Notes: generated from the letters alone by a model not told the origin. DNA of 64,000 nucleotides from Candidatus Peribacteria bacterium (GCA_041691135.1 JBEPVF010000003.1:80327-144326), one strand, 5' to 3'; shown: positions 14,054 to 64,000, counted from the first letter of the stretch. Numbers and translations are program-made.

Positions 14054-14818
14054 ATGATCGATTCCCATTGTCATTTAGCCGATGCAAAATTTGAGTCGGA
14101 TTTGTTGCAGGTACTGGAACGTGCCAAGGACCGAGGCGTAACGCAGATGATCACCATCGCCGATTCCGTGGCGGAATCTGAAAAGTGTGTGGACCTGGCG
14201 CGGCGTTACAAACAACTGTTCTGCGCTGTCGGCGTGCATCCGCACCATGCCTCGCAGTGGAATGATGACGCTGAGCGGCGACTGCTAGCGCTGACGACCT
14301 ATTCCGATCGGGTGAAGGCGGTGGGGGAGATTGGGCTCGATTATCACTATGATTTTTCGCCGCGTGATGTGCAGCGCGATGCCTTTATCGCGCAGCTCAA
14401 ATTTGCCGGCTGCGAAGGATTTCCTGTCGTCGTGCATTGCCGCGAAGCAATTGAAGATGTGCGACAGATTGTCGAGCAGATCAAACCCGAAAAATTAGTC
14501 CTGCACTGCTGCAGCGAGACATTTGCCGATGTCGTCCCGTTACTTGAGCGCGGTTATTTTCTGTCTTTCACCGGCATTGCCACGTTCCCAAAATCTCAGG
14601 ATATCCGCGAGACCATCCGGCGTACGCCCATTGAACAGATCATGGTCGAGACCGATGCGCCGTACTTGGCACCTGTTCCATACCGAGGTAAAAGAAATGA
14701 GCCGGCGTACGTAGTGGAAGTGGCCCAGTGTATTGCTGATATCAAGGGTTTGTCCTTGGAAGAAGTGGATGCCATCACCACCAAAAATGCGGTAGAGTTC
14801 TTCCAATTGCGCTCGTAG
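14054..14818 (+). CDS. tatD: TatD family hydrolase
   Basis: MIDSHCHL, GVHPH, VGEIGLDY, VHCREA, LHC, ETDAPYLAP, RNEPAYV. Confidence 0.93.
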   Translation: MIDSHCHLADAKFESDLLQVLERAKDRGVTQMITIADSVAESEKCVDLARRYKQLFCAVGVHPHHASQWNDDAERRLLALTTYSDRVKAVGEIGLDYHYDFSPRDVQRDAFIAQLKFAGCEGFPVVVHCREAIEDVRQIVEQIKPEKLVLHCCSETFADVVPLLERGYFLSFTGIATFPKSQDIRETIRRTPIEQIMVETDAPYLAPVPYRGKRNEPAYVVEVAQCIADIKGLSLEEVDAITTKNAVEFFQLRS

Positions 14819-14885
14819 CTCAACTGGATAGAGCGTCGGCCTCCGAAGCCGAAGGTTGTGGGTTCAATTCCCGCCGAGCGCACCA
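14809..14885 (+). tRNA. tRNA-Arg(CCG)
   Basis: GCGCTCGTAGCTCAACTGGATAGAGCGTCGGC-CT-CCG-AA-GCCGAAGGTTGTGGGTTCAATTCCCGCCGAGCGCACCA; the first 10 nt overlap the tatD 3' end. Confidence 0.95.
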
Positions 14886-15053
14886 TTCGGCTTCGCGACG
14901 AGGGAGCGACGATCTTGGGGTTGCCTAGGAATGCGTCTGGCCGGCGATCTCGCTACGCCGCAATGGTGTTCGGCTCACCGGTTTACTAGTTCTAAAACTT
15001 CAAATAACCCTTCTGATCTATGCCGCGTAGCCGTATACGATGAAGGAGAAGCG
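14883..15053. repeat. tRNA-adjacent palindromic element pair (TTC/TAC family)
   Basis: CGGC-TTC-GCGA...TCGC-TAC-GCCG (14888-14960) and inverted partner GCCGC-GTAG-CC...GG-AGAA-GCGG (15022-15053). Confidence 0.7.
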
Positions 15054-15080
15054 GAGTGATTCGAATGCTCCGCTTCTCCT
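15044..15080. terminator. Strong hairpin, probable terminator
   Basis: aggagaagcggag-tgattcgaatg-ctccgcttctcct, downstream of both the tRNA-Arg and the converging small membrane-protein gene. Confidence 0.65.
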
Positions 15081-15110
15081 GAATGTTGTCGATAGCTTTT
15101 AATTACTAAG

Positions 15111-15356
15111 TTAGGCTGTTCGTCGGAAGGCGTTGACGATGAACAGCAGTACCACTGCTCCCACTACTGCCGTGATGAGCGAGCCGATCAGTCCATAGGT
15201 GGTGACACCAAACAGACCGAAGATGTATCCGCCGATCACAGCGCCGATGACGCCGACGACCAGGTTGCCGACGAGGCCGAAGCCATTGCCGCGCATCAAT
15301 TCGCCGGCGATCCAGCCGGCTGCAATACCGATGATAAGAAACCAAAGGAGACTCAT
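15111..15356 (-). CDS. GlsB/YeaQ/YmgE family stress-response membrane protein
   Basis: 81 aa; LIIGIAAGWIAG...GNLVVGVIGAVIGG...AVVGAVVLLFI. Confidence 0.9.
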   Translation of the reverse strand: MSLLWFLIIGIAAGWIAGELMRGNGFGLVGNLVVGVIGAVIGGYIFGLFGVTTYGLIGSLITAVVGAVVLLFIVNAFRRTA

Positions 15357-15540
15357 GGAATAAGGGGGAAGAAATCTGATAACACACCCTATGACGCTGC
15401 TATGGGCAGGGGATTACCGAATTGCATTTGACATTTCCTTTTGATGAATGTGCAGGTTATTTCGTCCCTAAACGGTAATAACGGCAAATACAGCAGGACT
15501 TGCATCAGATATCAATCCTCCGTAGCATCCTCTGGCTCTT

Positions 15541-15616
15541 GCGGATGTAGCTCAGTTGGTAGAGCGGCGCCTTGCCAAGGCGCAGGTCGCGGGTTCGAGC
15601 CCCGTCATCCGCTCCA
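15541..15616 (+). tRNA. tRNA-Gly(GCC)
   Basis: GCGGATGTAGCTCAGTTGGTAGAGCGGCGCC-TT-GCC-AA-GGCGCAGGTCGCGGGTTCGAGCCCCGTCATCCGCTCCA. Confidence 0.97.
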
Positions 15617-15789
15617 TCCGGCTTCGCGGAATTCCTCAGAATGTCTTCTAGTTTGTTGAGAAGCTTCTGATCGTCGATCCCGCTTCGCCCAGATGTCGCT
15701 AGTGGAGTTGTCGCGGCGTAGCGGTATCGCCCGCCATGACTCCCTTCTTATTAGCTACAGCATCAATATTATAATACCGCGAAGTCGGA
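15617..15789. repeat. tRNA-adjacent palindromic element pair (TTC/TAC family)
   Basis: Outer IR tccggcttcgcgg / ccgcgaagtcgga; inner unit gcggcGTAGcggtat...ataccgcGAAgtcg; 19 bp identical to 49620-49638. Confidence 0.8.
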
Positions 15790-15796
15790 CAACTAC

Positions 15797-15870
15797 GCGG
15801 GATTAGTACAGTGGTAGTACGCGAGCTTCCCAAGCTTGAGACACGGGTTCGATTCCCGTATCCCGCTCCA
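15797..15870 (+). tRNA. tRNA-Gly(CCC)
   Basis: GCGGGATTAGTACAGTGGTAGTACGCGAGC-TT-CCC-AA-GCTTGAGACACGGGTTCGATTCCCGTATCCCGCTCCA. Confidence 0.95.
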
Positions 15871-15971
15871 CCCGGCTTCGCCTGCGGGCTACGCCGAGGT
15901 TTCGCAAACTCACGAGAATATAAAAGGCTGGGTGCCTCGGCATAGTCGAGCCGCAGCGAGACGAAGCCGGG
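15871..15971. repeat. Inverted pair of TTC/TAC palindromes (REP-doublet-like)
   Basis: cccggcTTCgcctgcgggcTACgccgagg ... cctcggcATAgtc(gagccgcagcga)gacGAAgccggg. Confidence 0.85.
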
Positions 15972-15995
15972 CCTTTTAAGTTAGACTACCCTGCT

Positions 15996-16253
15996 ATGCA
16001 TTTTGTCTACGTTCTTGAATCGGAAAACAGGCAACATTGGTATTGTGGTATCACAAACAATATTAAACGAAGGCTAGTTGAACACAATGCAGGTAAAAGT
16101 ATTCATACGAATAAATTCAAACCATGGACGTTGCGACTCTGTGTGATTTTTAAAGATCGTAAACGCGCGGAAAAATTTGAAGATTATTTGAAATCGCATT
16201 CGGGAAGGGCCTTCCTGAAGAAGCATCTGCATGAAAGGAGTGAGAATGTTTGA
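15996..16253 (+). CDS. Stand-alone GIY-YIG nuclease family protein
   Basis: 85 aa; FVYVLES...WYCGIT...RRLVEHNAG...T.KFKPW.L...A.KFE.YLKSHSGR. Confidence 0.92.
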   Translation: MHFVYVLESENRQHWYCGITNNIKRRLVEHNAGKSIHTNKFKPWTLRLCVIFKDRKRAEKFEDYLKSHSGRAFLKKHLHERSENV

Positions 16254-16541
16254 GTAGCTGTTACTACCTTCCAGTAGCTCGCTCCAGACAATTTATGGCA
16301 GCAAATAGTTCTGTTCAGCTAACGGAGATTTTTCTTGTTTCGAGGTTGTCTGGAGAATTTTTTAATTGGGAGGAGGACCTCCCAACCCCTCCCTGGGGCT
16401 GAGTCTTGGTCCGAATAAGTTCCCATATCCCGCTCCAACTCTAAACATTTTCTCATCAAGAATTTTGACTAGTTTTTGCCAAACTCCTCTTACAAGTTTG
16501 CACCCATGTACAAGGCAAATACGAATATGTACTCTATTTCT

Positions 16542-17267
16542 ATGAGAAAAATAACCTTCGGTGCCTTAGTTATTTCCGCAATCATCGTGGCCGCATGTCA
16601 GAGTAGCCCGACTTCCGATACGGGAATTGCTTCCAGCTCTCAGGTCAGTTCATTTTCTAATGGATCGTCAAATAGTTCATCAGTACATGCCGCTTCTTGG
16701 AAAACATACACCAATTCTCTGCTGGGTTTCTCTATCCGATACCCAGAGAGTATTTACGTATCTCCCACTGATTGCTCCGACCCATCTGCCACTATGGCGC
16801 TACTCGTTGTGAGTGATGATCCACAGAGGGATCAGATCTATATTGCTCCGGATTACACAATTTCTGGCTCTGATTGTAAGAAACAACAGGTAACAATCAA
16901 TGACCTTAACGGATCGCAAAAAAAACCGATTGCTCTTCCTTTCTGGCGACTTCGCGTGGTGCGCATCGCCGATGAGGCAGCTCTACGCTACTTCATCGGT
17001 AAAGAATTTGGTTCAAGTTGCACAATTGGTAAAAAAACACCAAGTCAGCAAGCTGGCGTGTTTGATGTGGAGATCAAAGGAGACGGTAAACCCTTGAGTG
17101 AAACGAAGTGTCCAGTCATGGTAAAAGAGGTGCTTAAATACTATCCTGCGACGCAGTCATTAGCTTTTTGGAGCATGGGTGAAGAGCCCACCTTCATAGG
17201 AGACGCGCAGGGCACAATTATTTATGACTTCGATATGGAAAAATCTTTTCAGTTTATTCAGAAATAG
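16542..17267 (+). CDS. Hypothetical lipoprotein (WKTY.N...GFSI.YP domain common in CPR)
   Basis: Lipobox IVAAC, Ser-rich linker, SWKTYTNSLLGFSIRYP motif; AT-richer than the core genes. Confidence 0.75.
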   Translation: MRKITFGALVISAIIVAACQSSPTSDTGIASSSQVSSFSNGSSNSSSVHAASWKTYTNSLLGFSIRYPESIYVSPTDCSDPSATMALLVVSDDPQRDQIYIAPDYTISGSDCKKQQVTINDLNGSQKKPIALPFWRLRVVRIADEAALRYFIGKEFGSSCTIGKKTPSQQAGVFDVEIKGDGKPLSETKCPVMVKEVLKYYPATQSLAFWSMGEEPTFIGDAQGTIIYDFDMEKSFQFIQK

Positions 17268-38569: not shown

Positions 38570-38875
38570 TTAGTTTCTGGAATAGTGAAGTTCTTTACCC
38601 AGAATCAGTTTTTCCTTTTGAGCTTTTCTCCATTTCTTCACCGCTGCTTCGCGCTTTAACGCCTCGGACTTCGTCCCGAACGCTTCGTTGTACACGATGC
38701 GTATCGGTTGTCGGCTGCGGGTGTATTTTGCTCCTGTTCCGGCATTATGCGCCGCTTCGCGGTCCGTAAGATTGTTACAGTAGCCGGCGTACAGTGAATC
38801 ATCGGCGCAGCGGGCCAGATAAAAATAGAAGAACGATTTCTTCTTCGCAGGTTTTTTAGCCGTAAACTTACGCAT
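38570..38875 (-). CDS. GIY-YIG nuclease family protein (UPF0213/YhbQ-like)
   Basis: YFYLARCADDSLYAGY...R...HNAG.GAKYTRSR.P...SEALKRE..VKKW. Confidence 0.9.
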   Translation of the reverse strand: MRKFTAKKPAKKKSFFYFYLARCADDSLYAGYCNNLTDREAAHNAGTGAKYTRSRQPIRIVYNEAFGTKSEALKREAAVKKWRKAQKEKLILGKELHYSRN

Positions 38876-39257
38876 GGCCGCCCGGCGAACAGGATGCCTG
38901 TGCCAAGCCCACCGCTGTGACGCAGGTCCACACATCTGGTCCGGTAGCCGTCTTGGTCGGTCCCCAGACGGTGCCGTCGCCTGCCGTTAAATCACACCAT
39001 TCGCCGGTGGAAGACGGTGGCAGTCCGATGTAGTGCGTGGTGCCGTATTCGTCGAATTGTTCGTAATCCGGCCGCATCAGATTGATGCCGTCTTTGGTAT
39101 GCGGTTTGGTGGTGCAGATAATTTTGTTCACATCGACATGTTGCACAGCAAGACGGTGCATGAGATAGGGATAGCCAAGTACGGCTGCATACCCCACCAA
39201 TGCGAGGACGATGATGCGCGTGGTGAAACCTTGTACTCCGTCGAACATGCTTTTCAT
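38868..39257 (-). CDS. Hypothetical membrane-anchored protein with four Cys
   Basis: Start placed at MKSMFDG (39257), one TM, overlaps the GIY-YIG start; the upstream part of the ORF overlaps the next gene. Confidence 0.6.
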   Translation of the reverse strand: MKSMFDGVQGFTTRIIVLALVGYAAVLGYPYLMHRLAVQHVDVNKIICTTKPHTKDGINLMRPDYEQFDEYGTTHYIGLPPSSTGEWCDLTAGDGTVWGPTKTATGPDVWTCVTAVGLAQASCSPGGHA

Positions 39258-39952: not shown

Positions 39953-40076
39953 GCGCAGAGAGTACCCCCATTTTGTCCGCGTTTCACCTCTTGAATGTTC
40001 CGGTGACTATATTTCAGTTCTGTGTAGTGATGGAATGGGACGTTGCTCCACAATTTTTGTAAGATGTTTTGTTGGG

Positions 40077-40187
40077 CAGTTCGACTGCGCTGCGGCTCCG
40101 CTCACTGTCATTCGCTTCGGCAAAGAATGGCCGGAGCGCTGGAGCGCGACGACCATGAGCGAGGCGCCAGAGCGCCGAGTCGAATGG
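40077..40187. repeat. tRNA-adjacent palindrome pair (TTCGAC...GCTCA family)
   Basis: cagTTCGACTgcgctgcggctcCGCTCActg and ccaTGAGCGaggcgccagagcgccgAGTCGAAtgg; the second abuts the tRNA CCA. Confidence 0.75.
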
Positions 40188-49581: not shown

Positions 49582-49619
49582 AAGGAGCTGATCATACTCA
49601 TATAAATAGGTACTTGATA

Positions 49620-49692
49620 GCGGCGTAGCGGTATCGCCGTTTCAATAGTTCTCACGCTAGGAAAACCAAGCCACTCTGGTGCCGCAAAGCCG
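49620..49692. repeat. TTC/TAC-family palindromic element
   Basis: gcggcGTAGcggtatc...ggtgccgcAAAgccgt; first 19 bp identical to 15713-15731. Confidence 0.75.
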
Positions 49693-49694
49693 TA

Positions 49695-50333
49695 TCAAGG
49701 GCCCCATCGATCCCGAATCACTCCCACCAGGTACCATTTGCCATCGGTGTCTTTTTTGAAGACCAATCGCAAACTCGCCCAATCCATGCCTTCGTACTGC
49801 GGATCGAAACCGTCGAAGTGATATTCGACGATTTGCGCATCAGGTCCGTAGAACTCGCGTGCATTATCGGTCGATGAACCGTGGTTCATGGTTTGGTTCC
49901 AGGTGACTGTAGGTGCCTGCGTAAAGTCGTGGTCCCAGATGTACTTGTCGTAGTACTGGGCGAAAGACAAATCGATCGGCAACCCTGAGGCATCCTCCAC
50001 GCCCCAGTGCCTCTGGCTGGAATCCTGCATGGCTGTCGTCAACTCAGTGGGTTTGAGGACGACATCCTGATCGTCGATAGAAGTGAATGGGGTGAACCGG
50101 ACACCGAGGGTGGGATGCGACAGGGCGGCGAAGCCGGTCATGTCTTTTGCCTTCAGTGTTTGCAGTACTGCTGTCGCAATGGCTTCAGGAGTCGTCTCTG
50201 CCATGGGCGAGGACATGTCGGCGGAAGAGACGGATGACGAGGACGATCCATCGATTGTGCCGGTTGCGGAGGTGCAACCAACCAGGGTAATCGTGAGGCA
50301 GAGCAGTGTTCTCGAAAGGTGACGAATGTGCAT
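49695..50333 (-). CDS. Hypothetical lipoprotein
   Basis: Lipobox LVGC; HPTLGVRFTP, WG..D.SG.PI.L.F..YY, GMDWASLRLVF...WYLVGV. Confidence 0.8.
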   Translation of the reverse strand: MHIRHLSRTLLCLTITLVGCTSATGTIDGSSSSSVSSADMSSPMAETTPEAIATAVLQTLKAKDMTGFAALSHPTLGVRFTPFTSIDDQDVVLKPTELTTAMQDSSQRHWGVEDASGLPIDLSFAQYYDKYIWDHDFTQAPTVTWNQTMNHGSSTDNAREFYGPDAQIVEYHFDGFDPQYEGMDWASLRLVFKKDTDGKWYLVGVIRDRWGP

Positions 50334-50645: not shown

Positions 50646-51911
50646 ATGCCCGCCCTCTCCGTTGCCAACGGCGACCGCTTAACCGTACTTCGCGAGCGCA
50701 TTCGTACGGCTCCCACCGAGCCCGGTGTGTACCGCTGGCTCGATCGAGACGGCGATATTCTGTATGTCGGCAAAGCCAAGAATCTGCGCAATCGGCTCAA
50801 GAGTTATGTAACCGGATCGCCGCAACGCGATGCGGGCGTGTTCAAGCGCAGTATGTGGGACAAAATGTGGGAGCTGGACCTGACGGTTACCAACACCGAA
50901 CTCGAGGCGCTGATTCTGGAGATGAACCTGATCCACAAGATCAAGCCGCCGTACAACGTGGCCATGAAGCGCGACCGGTCATACTGCTTCGTCCGCGTTG
51001 GCGCGAATGAGGATTTTCCATCAGTGCGCATTGTACAGAAGCGGGCGGTGGATGGTGCTCGCTATTTTGGGCCGTTCCTCAACCGGCGCGGGCAGGAGCA
51101 GATGATCGATTTGTTGCGTACGGTGTATCCATTTCGCACATGCACGATGGGCATCAGTATGGCTGAGCCGGAGCTGTTCCCGGTTCGTGAGGTGGGGAAG
51201 CGGTTGGAGCTGGAGGTAACGCTCAAGAAACCGGATCGTCGCGCACCGTGTTTGGATTATCATATTCAGCGCTGCAGCGGACCGTGCGCTGGTTCCATTA
51301 CAAAACAGGATTATGCTGACAAATCGATCCATGGTGTGATCGAGTTCTACGAAGGCAAATTTGCACCGGTCATTGACCGATTGATTGAGCGCATGCAGGC
51401 GGCGGCCACCGGTCGCAAGTTCGAGCGAGCGATGGAAATCCGCGATGCACTGCGATTCGTGAAAGGTTTACAGCGGCAGCATCAATTATTCCGGTTTACC
51501 GATGTGTATGCCGATGCCGTTGCCTGTGCGCTCTACGGCGAGACTCTCCATATCGTTCTGCTACAAGTCCGTGGGGGGAATGTCGTCAACGAAATGGCAG
51601 TTTCGCTTGAGCAGTCGGAGAAGATCGAGGAGATGCTCACAGATTTTCTGACCCAGTACTATGCGCAGGAATCAGCCGTCCCGGACCGCATTTTTATTGA
51701 CCGTGATCTTCCCGATGTATCTGTGCTCAAGCAGTACCTTCGTTCTTTACGTAGCAGTGCCGTCTCTATTGATGTGCCTCAAAAAGGCGAAGGGGCAAAG
51801 CTGATCAAACTGGCGCGGAAGAATGTGGAGAAAAAGATTGAGATGGAGCGGAAGAGGAGGGATGAGGAGGTAGTACAAGGAGTGGAGAGGTTGGTGCCGG
51901 CGATGGGATAG
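50646..51911 (+). CDS. UvrC-like excinuclease, N-terminal half only (Cho-like or truncated)
   Basis: PGVY...ILYVGKAKNLRNRLKSY, EALILE.NLI....PPYN, YFGPF, Cys cluster, UVR domain; no RNase H-like 5' nuclease or HhH domain. Confidence 0.85.
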   Translation: MPALSVANGDRLTVLRERIRTAPTEPGVYRWLDRDGDILYVGKAKNLRNRLKSYVTGSPQRDAGVFKRSMWDKMWELDLTVTNTELEALILEMNLIHKIKPPYNVAMKRDRSYCFVRVGANEDFPSVRIVQKRAVDGARYFGPFLNRRGQEQMIDLLRTVYPFRTCTMGISMAEPELFPVREVGKRLELEVTLKKPDRRAPCLDYHIQRCSGPCAGSITKQDYADKSIHGVIEFYEGKFAPVIDRLIERMQAAATGRKFERAMEIRDALRFVKGLQRQHQLFRFTDVYADAVACALYGETLHIVLLQVRGGNVVNEMAVSLEQSEKIEEMLTDFLTQYYAQESAVPDRIFIDRDLPDVSVLKQYLRSLRSSAVSIDVPQKGEGAKLIKLARKNVEKKIEMERKRRDEEVVQGVERLVPAMG

Positions 51912-62040: not shown

Positions 62041-63579
62041 ATGCACACAGAAACCTCTCCCCGCCAGCATCGGCACTTTGTGGCCGCTCCGCTCATTATG
62101 GCCGTACTGTTGTCCTCGGTTGTGCCGGTCTTGGGCCAGGGGTCCGTCCGGGCCGAACTGACGACGGTATCGGTGATCGATGCGCAGCATCATGCCATCC
62201 GGTTTCGTACCGGTTTGTCGGCGTTGATCGAAAAGGGGACGCAGGTGGCTGAAGCGAATGACGGCATGGTCCTCCTAGCTGGATCCGCGCTGGTTGCCAA
62301 TGCATCCGTCCTCCACGTGCAGGCAGGTCCGGCGGAGCTGACCGGATTCGATGGTGCATTCTATGCGTCCTACCAGAGTCCTGTGCTCACCGTCGCTGCT
62401 ATTTCCACGCCAGTGTATGTTCGCATGGCGAACGGCATTGCTATTGTCCCGGTTGGACGCCAGTGGCGCATATCGGCCGAGGCACTTCCTGCTTTCAGTG
62501 CCGGATGGGAGGACTGGATCACAGCTCACGAGACCAAACCATTGCCTGCATCATTCATCCAGGAACAGCGTGCCGTGGCGCAGACGCTTGATGCATCTGC
62601 CCGCTCTGGGAATAAGGAAACACCAGCAGCCGATCTTGTGATAGGCAAATTGCCGGCGGCCCGTCAGCGTTTGGAGCAGGCTCAACAGGAGGGCCTTGGT
62701 GGGACAATCCATGCGCTTGTACAGTCGGGTGATGCGGTATCTCTCCAGTCGCTTCTGACTGATCCTGCGGTGAATCAACTGACGTCTGATGAGCGCCTCT
62801 CGCTGTTGTCTTCTGATGCCTCGCCGTCAGTGCTCCTCGCTGTGCAGCCGCTTGTGTCGGCGGATGCTACCAGTCGTCTGCTGCTCAGTTTCCATCCGGC
62901 GTACCGTCAGGTCTTCCTGGCCGACGCGCTTACCGCGTCCACTGATCCGGAAGAAAGTGCGTTGCGTCTGCTGCTTCTGCCGGCGTCCGACACACTTCCC
63001 ACGCCGCTTCCACCTGTGCTTCGCAGTCAGTACCTTGCGGCCATGCAGAGCTTTCTGCGCGGGCAGAAACAGCCGTTGCCCATGTTGTATGCCTTTATCC
63101 GTCAGATGGCTGAGGTGCAGCAAGAGTTGTCTGAATCGCAGTATCCCGAGCGACATGCCGCGTACGGCGATGCAATTCGCCAATTTCTTCCGTCATCCAG
63201 CGATGTTGTACCGGCTGATATAACCGCAATTGCCGCTTCCTTTCGTTCTGATGTGATTCAGGCGTCGCAATCCGTATCCTCGGCGTCGGTGTCGTCCGCT
63301 CCTTGTAATGCTGCTAAGCCATCGGATCCAGTCGATCGAACGCGCAATTTTCTCCAGGAGGCCGGCGCCCTCTTCACCGTTCAAACATCACTCACCATTC
63401 TCGATGCACACGATGTGCGCGTTGAATCAGTCGCTTTCTCCACCGGCCAGGGCGATCGTCTGCTGTCCTTCACCGTCGATTATACCTGTCAGATGTTGAA
63501 AGATATGACTGTCGATGGGCAGAAGCAGCCGTTGTCGATGTCGATGGAGGCGTTTGGGAAGTGGGTAAGGACAAACTAA
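62041..63579 (+). CDS. Hypothetical exported protein
   Basis: 512 aa; N-terminal signal/TM, beta-rich (weakly FecR-like) N-terminal part, helical C-terminal part. Confidence 0.7.
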   Translation: MHTETSPRQHRHFVAAPLIMAVLLSSVVPVLGQGSVRAELTTVSVIDAQHHAIRFRTGLSALIEKGTQVAEANDGMVLLAGSALVANASVLHVQAGPAELTGFDGAFYASYQSPVLTVAAISTPVYVRMANGIAIVPVGRQWRISAEALPAFSAGWEDWITAHETKPLPASFIQEQRAVAQTLDASARSGNKETPAADLVIGKLPAARQRLEQAQQEGLGGTIHALVQSGDAVSLQSLLTDPAVNQLTSDERLSLLSSDASPSVLLAVQPLVSADATSRLLLSFHPAYRQVFLADALTASTDPEESALRLLLLPASDTLPTPLPPVLRSQYLAAMQSFLRGQKQPLPMLYAFIRQMAEVQQELSESQYPERHAAYGDAIRQFLPSSSDVVPADITAIAASFRSDVIQASQSVSSASVSSAPCNAAKPSDPVDRTRNFLQEAGALFTVQTSLTILDAHDVRVESVAFSTGQGDRLLSFTVDYTCQMLKDMTVDGQKQPLSMSMEAFGKWVRTN

Positions 63580-63839
63580 GAGCGAGCTTGTCTTTTATTG
63601 AGAACAAGATGCCTATAGCGAAACATTGTTCCTGACCCTGATTTCAAATATTTTTCAAAGGCCAGAGCTTGTTCCATGGTTGGGAATGCACAGGCAAAAC
63701 GAAGTTTCCACGGACGAAATTTCGATGTGGAGGCAACATCTCCCTTGTTATGTTTAACAAGACGTTTCTTTATATTACGAGTAGAGCCGACGTATTGTCT
63801 TTCTTCTTCGTTTTCGAGGACATACACGTAGTGCCACAT
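63576..63839 (-). CDS. Stand-alone GIY-YIG nuclease family protein
   Basis: YVYVLEN...YVGST...RL.KHN.G...STSKFRPW.L...A..FEKYLKSGSG; clear paralog of 15996-16253. Confidence 0.92.
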   Translation of the reverse strand: MWHYVYVLENEEERQYVGSTRNIKKRLVKHNKGDVASTSKFRPWKLRFACAFPTMEQALAFEKYLKSGSGTMFRYRHLVLNKRQARS

Positions 63840-63866: not shown

Positions 63867-64000
63867 TGGCCTGCCAACCGTAGTCAGGAAGTCATCGCAG
63901 AATAAGTCCACCTTCGCTCGCTCCGGCGAGACTACTGTGTTCAAGTGGCCTGCCAACCGTAGTCAGGAAGTCATCGCAGAATAAGTCCACCTTCGCTCGC
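63867..64000. repeat. 79-bp tandem repeat of TTC/TAC-family palindromes upstream of the GIY-YIG gene (cut by the window end)
   Basis: tggcctgccaaccgtagtcaggaagtcatcgcagaataagtccaccttcgctcgc is identical at 63867-63921 and 63946-64000. Confidence 0.9.

Follow-up and report, generated by a model that had tools for sequence, protein, structure and literature searches.

What are the palindromes that follow consecutive transfer RNA (tRNA) genes in a genome of Candidatus Peribacteria, and how are they related to the very small GIY-YIG nuclease gene that stands behind the last of them? The question arises from a stretch of 64,000 nucleotides (nt) of the assembly GCA_041691135.1 (JBEPVF010000003.1:80327-144326), here called the window, with positions counted from its first letter. 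In the handles used for genome comparison the window is G000:C3:80327-144326, G000 being an assembly of 1.74 Mb in 35 contigs that was compared with 40 relatives (41 genomes in all). The reading favoured here, to which we give a probability of about 45%, is that the locus holds selfish palindrome-plus-nuclease cassettes at tRNA 3' ends. These would be a GIY-YIG analogue either of repetitive extragenic palindromic (REP) sequences, with their doublets (REPINs) and REP-associated tyrosine transposases (RAYTs), or of free-standing homing genes.

Five palindromic modules, A to E, accompany three tRNA genes of the plus strand, and all five have common ends of the type CGGC/CGAC-TTC-G…C-TAC/TTC/TAT-GCCG; shared ends had already been noted in a preliminary description made from the sequence alone. 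The gene for tRNA-Arg(CCG) (14809-14885, +; ARAGORN, and 72.3 bits with the Rfam tRNA model) leads directly into module A (14883-14966, +), a long form of 84 nt reading CCATT-CGGC-TTC-GCGA…TCGC-TAC-GCCG-C-AATGG, whose first three bases are the terminal CCA of the tRNA. Behind tRNA-Gly(GCC) (15541-15616, +; ARAGORN, Rfam) lies module B (15614-15695, +), a long form of 82 nt and of the TTC/TTC variant. Its inverted partner, module C (15707-15793, -), is again a long form, with flanks GTTGTC and GACAAC that pair with each other; B and C stand 11 nt apart and constitute an 'empty' doublet without a gene. The third gene, tRNA-Gly(CCC) (15797-15870, +; ARAGORN, Rfam), is followed by the short module D (15868-15899, +; CCACC-CGGC-TTC-GCC-TGCG-GGC-TAC-GCCG-AGG) and its short inverted partner E (15930-15973, -). 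Together they make a REPIN-like doublet, the right-hand element of which is kept at three other loci (L003, L017, L018), and module D plus its tRNA has a copy of about 90% identity in another genus (G013). The last pair precedes, as first described, an intact stand-alone GIY-YIG nuclease gene of 85 amino acids (aa; 15996-16253, +; PF01541, E 1.3e-16). An inverted pair of hairpins had been reported after each of the three tRNAs; this holds for both tRNA-Gly genes, and tRNA-Arg(CCG) is followed by one intact module and a 12-nt remnant of the outer end of its inverted partner (CCGCGTAGCCG, approximately 15020-15033 as read from the alignment with the congeneric genome G004, no strand assigned). 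The orphan copy signalled near 49620 is likewise real: it is a long module of the TTT variant (49614-49698, -) with TTGATA and TATCAA as flanks, and the nearest tRNA gene is about 1.8 kb away.

The anatomy of the long form was examined on an alignment (A1) of 23 long modules, four from the window (rows winA, winB, winC and win49620) and 19 from relatives. RNAalifold gives a basal stem of 9 bp with a 1-nt bulge, composed of five variable flank pairs plus CGGC/GCCG. Above it come a 3x3 internal loop (TTC/TAC), which is the unpaired loop proposed at the outset, and a GCGG/CCGC stem; no conserved structure was found by this method in the interior of the 23 modules. Pairing reaches 94.3%, compared with 80.3% in shuffled alignments (0/500 as high) and 31-58% in slid controls, and the covariation score is 0.362 versus 0.101 in shuffles (again 0/500). 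The flank pairs covary freely: columns 13-92, for example, hold CG 10 times, GC 5 times, AU 4 times and UA 4 times, with none broken. In long copies adjoining a tRNA, the tRNA's own CCAT(C/T) serves as the 5' flank and is matched by a complementary 3' flank. Template-switch 'correction' of quasi-palindromes is an idea that could explain the extension of the stem into any flank, CCA included.

The enclosed segment had been presented as variable in length. This is correct between the two forms (8 nt in D, as a 2-bp stem with a TGCG loop, versus about 57 nt in A, B and C), but not within the long form, where cores measure 70-77 nt, mostly 72-73, although the search pattern permitted 55-85, so that the supposed variable insert is of nearly fixed length. 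Its centre is hypervariable and its inner ends are semi-conserved (YRTGRGAG after GCGG, GCGnCGATM before CCGC). Short modules keep constant ends, and their inner stem varies in sequence between copies with pairing preserved; among 59 copies the apical loop is TGCG in 12 and TTCG in 4, which we take to be stable RNA tetraloops of the UNCG type. Inverted partners show the same asymmetric ends and the same loop (TGCG) on their own strand, which speaks for insertion of a DNA unit in either orientation and against a motif selected in one transcript. The modules gave no match in Rfam at E up to 10 for the window and up to 0.01 for 15 loci. Three known identities were also considered and rejected: integron attC sites, as no GTTRRRY cores were seen by eye; IS200/IS605 ends, as the IS200 copy of G000 has other hairpins; and a tRNA-like RNA, as the tRNA covariance model does not match the modules.

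Pattern searches show how these modules are distributed. The composite pattern CGGCTTCG…C(TAC/TTC/TAT/TAG)GCC(G/C) has five matches in the 1.74 Mb of G000, four of them at this locus and the fifth, on contig C19, read as chance; the isolated CGGCTTCG 8-mers in the rest of the window mostly lack a partner arm within 110 nt and fall outside the family. Across the 41 genomes, the short form (CGGCTTCG-N2-32-CTAYGCCG) yields 65 matches in 19 genomes versus 8 in the backwards control, and the long form (CGKCTYCGCGG-N33-63-CCGCTWCGMCG) 19 matches in 6 genomes versus none. Of 59 short copies, 27 have a tRNA at most 254 nt upstream, the remainder being mostly intergenic, and the 11 that begin 3 nt after a tRNA are all in the tRNA's orientation. 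Two short modules, L084 (G023:C39) and L085 (G014:C1), read as inside long frames (555 and 930 aa from stop to stop), a placement that resembles palindromes inserted in frame.

The small GIY-YIG genes are linked to tRNA genes well beyond this locus. G000 has eight PF01541 matches, six of which are small genes. Four of these six lie 19-255 nt behind a same-strand tRNA, each behind a different module family; of the other two, one is 161 nt from a contig end and one is without a tRNA link. Among relatives, the copy number of such genes ranges from 0 to 9. In G000 and 27 relatives, a same-strand tRNA occurs within 600 nt upstream of 37 of the 70 small genes (35 counted automatically, plus L019 and L037, whose open reading frame (ORF) starts had been overcalled), and nine of the remaining 33 are at contig ends with less than 270 nt of upstream sequence.

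Gene clade and module type go together. On a maximum-likelihood tree of the 70 proteins, which is based on 89 columns and leaves many forks unresolved, module type changes 21 times, compared with a mean of 36.2 when types are shuffled (0/200 as low), and one type is monophyletic at 97/93. All eight genes of the clade to which the window gene belongs stand directly behind a module of the CGGC/CGTC type. They come from eight genomes and follow seven tRNA species (Thr-CGU twice, Leu-UAA, Gly-UCC, Gly-GCC, His-GUG, Arg-CCG and Gly-CCC), so the module-gene pair has moved among tRNAs. The long-module and short-module sub-architectures are found in different parts of this clade. A sister clade of the window gene includes at least five diverged copies in a single genome, G010 (L020, L039, L043-L045), and an alignment of these five copies revealed no common termini.

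Orthologous sites differ in whether they carry the gene. In the congeneric G004, tRNA-Arg-CCG has the gene behind it, framed by a plus module and an inverted long module, and tRNA-Gly-CCC has none; in G000 the situation is the reverse, and its tRNA-Arg is followed by module A, 53 unrelated nt, the 12-nt remnant of the partner's outer end and then a flank orthologous to that of G004. The similarity of the G000 interior (14967-15040) to the inverted module of G004 is not significant. Similarly, a possible homology between the DNA after the GIY-YIG stop codon in G000 and that after the G013 doublet was dropped (score 12.5, shuffle maximum 15). The gene stands between two inverted long modules in three relatives. 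The layout in G018 consists of tRNA-His, a long module, the gene, an inverted long module and an exact 21-nt tRNA-His end, and G003 has a truncated version of it. In the window, an 18-nt copy of the tRNA-Gly(CCC) 3' end (16420-16437, +; one mismatch, a repeat of 15853-15870 ending at CCA) forms the distal boundary of a unit of about 570 bp. Among the ORFs scanned in this unit, only the GIY-YIG gene has a family match, and no tyrosine or serine recombinase was found. Such tRNA 3' end copies ending at CCA lie beyond the gene in 3 of 18 loci.

The association extends across phyla. A pattern search with the clade alignment (the broad alignment being too diverse) found at least 583 relatives, and the best 80 of them were examined. 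They belong to Peribacteria/Peregrinibacteria, Acidobacteriota, Verrucomicrobiota, Dependentiae and others, and include many Alphaproteobacteria (Bradyrhizobium, Rhizobium, Rhodospirillaceae, Rickettsiales). Of the 80 genes, 63 are located within 600 nt behind a same-strand tRNA; at 62 such loci, involving 20 tRNA species, the tRNA ends in CCA. Throughout, the intervening DNA follows the scheme CCA-N-TTC-G[stem-loop]C-TWC-N'-TGG, then an inverted partner, then the gene, and T[TAC]CG occurs 2-6 nt after CCA in 52 of the 62. Of 61 loci, nine have the tRNA 3' end repeated on the far side of the gene, over 12-30 nt and in every case up to the CCA; all nine exceed the control maximum, two of them are whole second tRNA copies, and several are followed by another module. 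Another relative, L250 on the chromosome of Desulfosarcina variabilis, is situated about 230 nt downstream of a transfer-messenger RNA (tmRNA) gene, not a tRNA gene. No homologue of the 85-aa protein was found in plasmids at E 1e-10.

The 85-aa protein consists of a single domain, to which Pfam adds only a weak T5orf172 match over the same residues, and its closest named relatives among the matches listed are from Candidatus Peribacteria/Peregrinibacteria metagenome-assembled genomes. In 25 sequences, residues Y5, Y16, G18, R26, T38, A58, E62, K66 and G70 do not vary, and H30 is nearly constant; the catalytic Y5, Y16, R26, H30 and E62 are thus conserved. The best sequence match in the PDB is UPF0213 protein BH0048 (1ZG2, E 1.3e-5), followed by 1YWL (E 0.0039); we know of no function for UPF0213 proteins. 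The AlphaFold model (pLDDT 90.6) retrieves 1ZG2, 7WME and Slx1 entries at a Foldseek probability of 1.00. The modelled protein most resembles the Slx1/UPF0213 nucleases, with 1ZG2, the At-HIGLE catalytic domain and Slx1 as its nearest folds (TMq 0.63-0.67, 28-34% identity) and far weaker matches to UvrC and I-TevI (E >=0.24). By analogy with these fold neighbours, the enzyme may cleave branched or hairpin DNA in a structure-specific manner. A 2006 survey of the GIY-YIG superfamily (Dunin-Horkawicz et al., PMC1564403) places minimal prokaryotic stand-alone domains in an 'Slx1 cluster', and passages of it contain no mention of a linkage to tRNA ends or palindromes. Nor is the tRNA-palindrome-GIY-YIG association described in the literature searched, subscription journals and supplementary files (possible gene-neighbourhood lists) lying outside that scope.

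According to the favoured reading, the locus would hold a compact selfish package three times over, each time at a tRNA CCA end and in a different state. One component would be the palindromic module, usually in inverted doublets, with a basal stem that starts at or mimics the tRNA's CCA and carries a 3x3 pyrimidine loop (TTC/TAC), a short G-C stem and then either a mini-hairpin or about 50 nt of fixed length and free sequence. The other would be the gene for a nuclease of about 80 aa, similar to Slx1/UPF0213, behind or between the modules. The nuclease would act on the hairpin or cruciform formed in DNA by its own module type, an action that fits because Slx1, by its PDB titles, processes branched DNA, and the break at a gene-less module site would be mended with a copy that has the gene as template. 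Portable homology would be provided by the module and the conserved tRNA 3' end, allowing the gene to spread among tRNAs with that module type. The distal tRNA-end copy would then be a by-product, and B/C, like A and its remnant, would be a gene-less doublet that is either an empty target or a decayed cassette. It is at the DNA level that we infer this action, together with what is cleaved and the direction of the process, in which the gene may invade doublets or doublets may derive from gene-bearing units. A wider proposal, possible in our view and still doubtful, is an unrecognised class of minimal mobile elements of about 0.4-0.6 kb, made of inverted modules and an Slx1-like GIY-YIG protein of about 80 aa that recognises its own hairpin. 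These elements would insert at tRNA and tmRNA CCA ends across phyla, from Peribacteria to Bradyrhizobium, and leave REPIN-like gene-less doublets and tRNA-end copies behind.

Several observations weigh against a selfish cassette. The preliminary description had named beforehand, as evidence against the GIY-YIG proteins being the cognate enzymes of the hairpins, an occurrence of the motif independent of the gene, and 13 of the 31 genomes without a window-clade gene do contain the motif. G013, G014, G002 and G022 have window-family modules and no gene of the window clade; in G013, which is 85% complete and whose contigs break at doublets, there are 24 module copies. G019 (100% complete) has 13 tRNA trailers and no small GIY-YIG gene: its sole PF01541 match sits in a 645-aa frame, the size of UvrC, and ten tRNA flanks fetched from it show these same module architectures among them. 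The genome-level association with GIY-YIG genes is weak and no better than that with Y1 transposases, the trailer count per genome having a rho of 0.41 with the GIY-YIG count and 0.40 with the Y1 count. Presence of a clade gene against presence of the module gives a 2x2 table of 8/2/13/18 (Fisher p 0.067), or 8/1/12/4 within the family (p 0.62), and even these p-values overstate the association, since kin are not independent. As to position, 32 of 59 short and 13 of 19 long modules are not near a tRNA, 17 of the 80 best cross-phylum loci have no upstream tRNA, and the five-copy clade of G010 has none within 600 nt upstream. The window gene itself lies outside the D/E doublet, and a gene framed by inverted repeats is not the general layout: inverted repeats flanking the 70 loci score 8.0 in the median, versus 8.5 in the control, with four loci exceeding the control maximum and the flanking modules of L019 seen separately. 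Finally, the 85-aa catalytic core is without an evident sequence-reading domain. The dependence is therefore one-sided, as clade genes adjoin their module type and modules also occur alone; the mechanism first suggested is only partly supported.

In another explanation, unlikely in our estimation, the modules are functional tRNA 3' trailers (for RNA processing, termination or protection by sequestering the CCA), GIY-YIG genes hitch-hike on strong tRNA transcription, and the coupling reflects co-inheritance of neighbouring DNA. Trailers of this kind are indeed widespread, TTCG following within 6 nt at 289 tRNA ends in 36 of the 41 genomes versus 6 in the control, and G019 keeps them with no small GIY-YIG gene at all. 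In G000, 3' flanks read by eye indicate that about 23 of 50 tRNAs carry one of four related module families, which begin with CGTAAAGCGCC…, TTCGACTCG…, (A/G)CCTTCG… or the window-type TTCGGCTTCG/YCCGGCTTCG, and whose signature words are almost confined to tRNA 3' sides (CTCGCTCATGRT, for example, in 4 of 5 occurrences). The basal stem pairs with the tRNA's own CCA above random expectation: a perfect complement of CCA plus at least 3 nt is found within 130 nt of 8 of 47 CCA-ending tRNAs versus 3.3% of 20,000 random CCA sites, and one of at least 9 nt in 5 of 47 versus 0.12%. The prominence of TGCG and TTCG among apical loops, the position of many long modules 2-27 nt past stop codons and the lack of a sigma-70-like promoter before the GIY-YIG gene also fit this explanation. 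The region 14700-16600 gave no promoter-like and one terminator-like site, not above shuffles; -10-like hexamers (TATACT/TATAAT) about 8 nt before the ATG were read, by eye only, in several GIY-YIG loci. Nevertheless, half of each inverted doublet would be the 'wrong way' round in a tRNA transcript, modules adjoining protein genes occur in both orientations, L084 and L085 read as inside long frames, and the modules have no T-tract and so are not canonical intrinsic terminators. A general trailer function also sits poorly with a G000 in which less than half of the tRNAs carry modules, and with G005 (98% complete), in which no such trailers were found. Identical cores at many unrelated sites require copying, not independent origin, and tRNA-end copies beyond the gene are left unexplained. 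A further explanation is that RAYT-like Y1 transposases of the genome move the modules as ordinary REPs or REPINs, the GIY-YIG adjacency being incidental.

This transposase explanation appears quite improbable to us. On its side, G000 has three RAYT-like genes plus one IS200-type TnpA, Y1_Tnp matches occur in 30 of the 41 genomes, and the CTAC found 3' of the inner stem is GTAG, a hallmark of REPs, on the other strand. The number of window-family modules is correlated with that of Y1_Tnp matches (rho 0.44 overall and 0.49 within the family), and G013, with the most modules, has 10 Y1 matches. However, there is no Y1/RAYT gene in the window, as noted from the start, the four PF01797 matches of G000 being on other contigs. 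A RAYT elsewhere in the genome does exist, and it is flanked by REPs that are different and not linked to tRNAs. Every RAYT-like gene with a readable frame and both flanks (three in G000, 8 of 17 fetched in relatives) has its own different hairpins, such as GAGCGCC-n7-GGCGCGG and GAGCGGGTTTGCTACCCGCGG in G000, none of the CGGC-TTC…TAC-GCCG type, and RAYTs are for this reason no obvious explanation of the tRNA-linked modules. The RAYT REP family is dispersed in G000, with 31 pattern matches (some clearly coding) and one adjoining a tRNA. Moreover, G026 (100% complete) has 12 trailers and no Y1 match, G022 and G023 have modules and no Y1 match, and the coupling of module type with GIY-YIG clade remains unexplained. 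The preliminary description had further suggested that RNAs with constant ends and variable middles, cut from tRNA precursors, could be guides or antitoxins of the GIY-YIG protein, which we now regard as extremely improbable. The fixed length of the long modules, with their hypervariable centre, and their start at the tRNA 3' processing site would suit such RNAs. The BLAST comparison that had been proposed for the variable middles gave no meaningful match: the five interiors match only themselves in the genome (next best E 0.18), and 50,697 phage records give only a marginal E of 0.06 or the tRNA part. A probably orthologous pair of copies from G001 and G004 has identical 3' flanks and an interior that diverges over its whole length, as if drifting. 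The interior is also the part for which RNAalifold gave no conserved structure, many copies are inverted or away from tRNAs, and the 85-aa protein has no known RNA-guide-binding module.

The cassettes proposed here resemble several known systems in part. With REP/REPIN-RAYT systems they share short, GC-rich imperfect palindromes with a conserved mismatch region and CTAC/GTAG, in inverted doublets and multiple copies. In both, copies without the gene are more numerous than those with it, some genomes have the enzyme gene between inverted copies, and in G000 there is about one gene clade per repeat type. They differ in that the adjoining enzyme is a GIY-YIG nuclease instead of an HUH tyrosine transposase, the modules cluster at tRNA CCA ends and have mutually paired flanks, the gene is usually beside the repeats, and no PF01797 gene with readable flanks is framed by window-type modules. 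Free-standing GIY-YIG homing genes have the same domain, a location among tRNA genes, and a patchy occurrence with presence and absence at orthologous sites. The Seg and I-TevI enzymes have about 200-250 aa and DNA-binding domains, whereas the protein here is an 85-aa catalytic core with no separate DNA-binding domain, far closer in fold to Slx1/UPF0213 than to I-TevI, accompanied by clade-specific palindromes and found in cellular genomes of many phyla. One such homing endonuclease gene, segB of phage T4, is situated in a tRNA gene cluster (PMC2330249). Slx1, HIGLE and UPF0213 proteins provide the best sequence and fold matches, and Slx1 recognises and processes branched DNA by its PDB titles; unlike Slx1, the protein here has no RING or zinc-finger domain and no Slx4 partner. 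Integrative elements that target tRNAs similarly use the tRNA/tmRNA 3' end as a site and have a direct repeat of the tRNA end (12-30 nt here) at the far boundary, but the unit here measures about 0.4-0.6 kb, has the GIY-YIG gene as its sole ORF and contains no integrase.

Other features of the window and its surroundings concern related repeats. Downstream of the GIY-YIG gene, a hairpin of 74 nt (16282-16355, +) has a 10-bp stem, CTCCAGACAA/TTGTCTGGAG, the 5' arm of which repeats the tRNA end GCTCCA; its membership of the module family is uncertain. It is followed by a perfect palindrome, GGGAGGAGGACCTCCC (16368-16383, no strand assigned), within a repeat of about 40 nt (16355-16399). This repeat recurs after tRNA-Val(UAC) (G000:C1:243489-243532) and at sites of 95-97% identity in the congeneric G001 and G004. 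A second small GIY-YIG gene (63576-63839, -; 87 aa) belongs to a different clade. It had been thought to be preceded by the same motif as the first, and is instead preceded by two tandem modules (63867-63921 and 63946-64000, -) of a different family, GCGAGCGAAGGTGGAC…GACTACGGTTGGCAGGCCA, which has the same architecture without the CGGC/GCCG motif and also precedes the sister genes L041 and L025. The contig end falls inside this tandem array of 55-nt modules, and contigs of G013 likewise break at doublets, so these repeats seem to fragment assemblies. On the minus strand at 40055-40184, a module from another family, CCATTCGACTCGGCGC…CTCGCTCATGG…GGCCA, and its inverted partner come after tRNA-Met(CAT); modules of this type are also found behind three other tRNAs of G000 and behind tRNAs of G019. 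Two more GIY-YIG domain matches lie at 50721-50957 and 38612-38914, one within a 423-aa open frame and the other a 101-aa gene that abuts its upstream gene and has no tRNA link. Outside the window, at G000:C3:13800-14400, a small GIY-YIG gene stands 19 nt behind tRNA-Val(CAC), and its end overlaps a near-full-length pseudo-tRNA-Val broken up by several 14-15-nt palindromes of the TCCGCCnnnGGCGGA type. Just upstream are two tRNA-Val 5' fragments in which the D-arm is replaced by palindromes of that type. The three RAYT-like Y1 genes of G000, each with its own inverted REPs, are at C11:30424-30952, C5:61745-62282 and C1:268230-268830.

Stand-alone GIY-YIG proteins of about 80-100 aa (UPF0213/COG2827-type) are common in bacteria, and two of the structures matched here are labelled 'UPF0213' or 'hypothetical protein'. 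A reproducible context, consisting of a tRNA or tmRNA 3' end, clade-specific palindromes and sporadic presence, offers a concrete and testable hypothesis for such proteins. Should the nuclease indeed act on hairpins of its own type, the REPIN/RAYT life-style would have been invented a second time, independently, and there would be a new source of small structure-specific nucleases. Such a system would also explain conserved tRNA trailers and tRNA-end duplications from bacteria of the candidate phyla radiation (CPR) to rhizobia.

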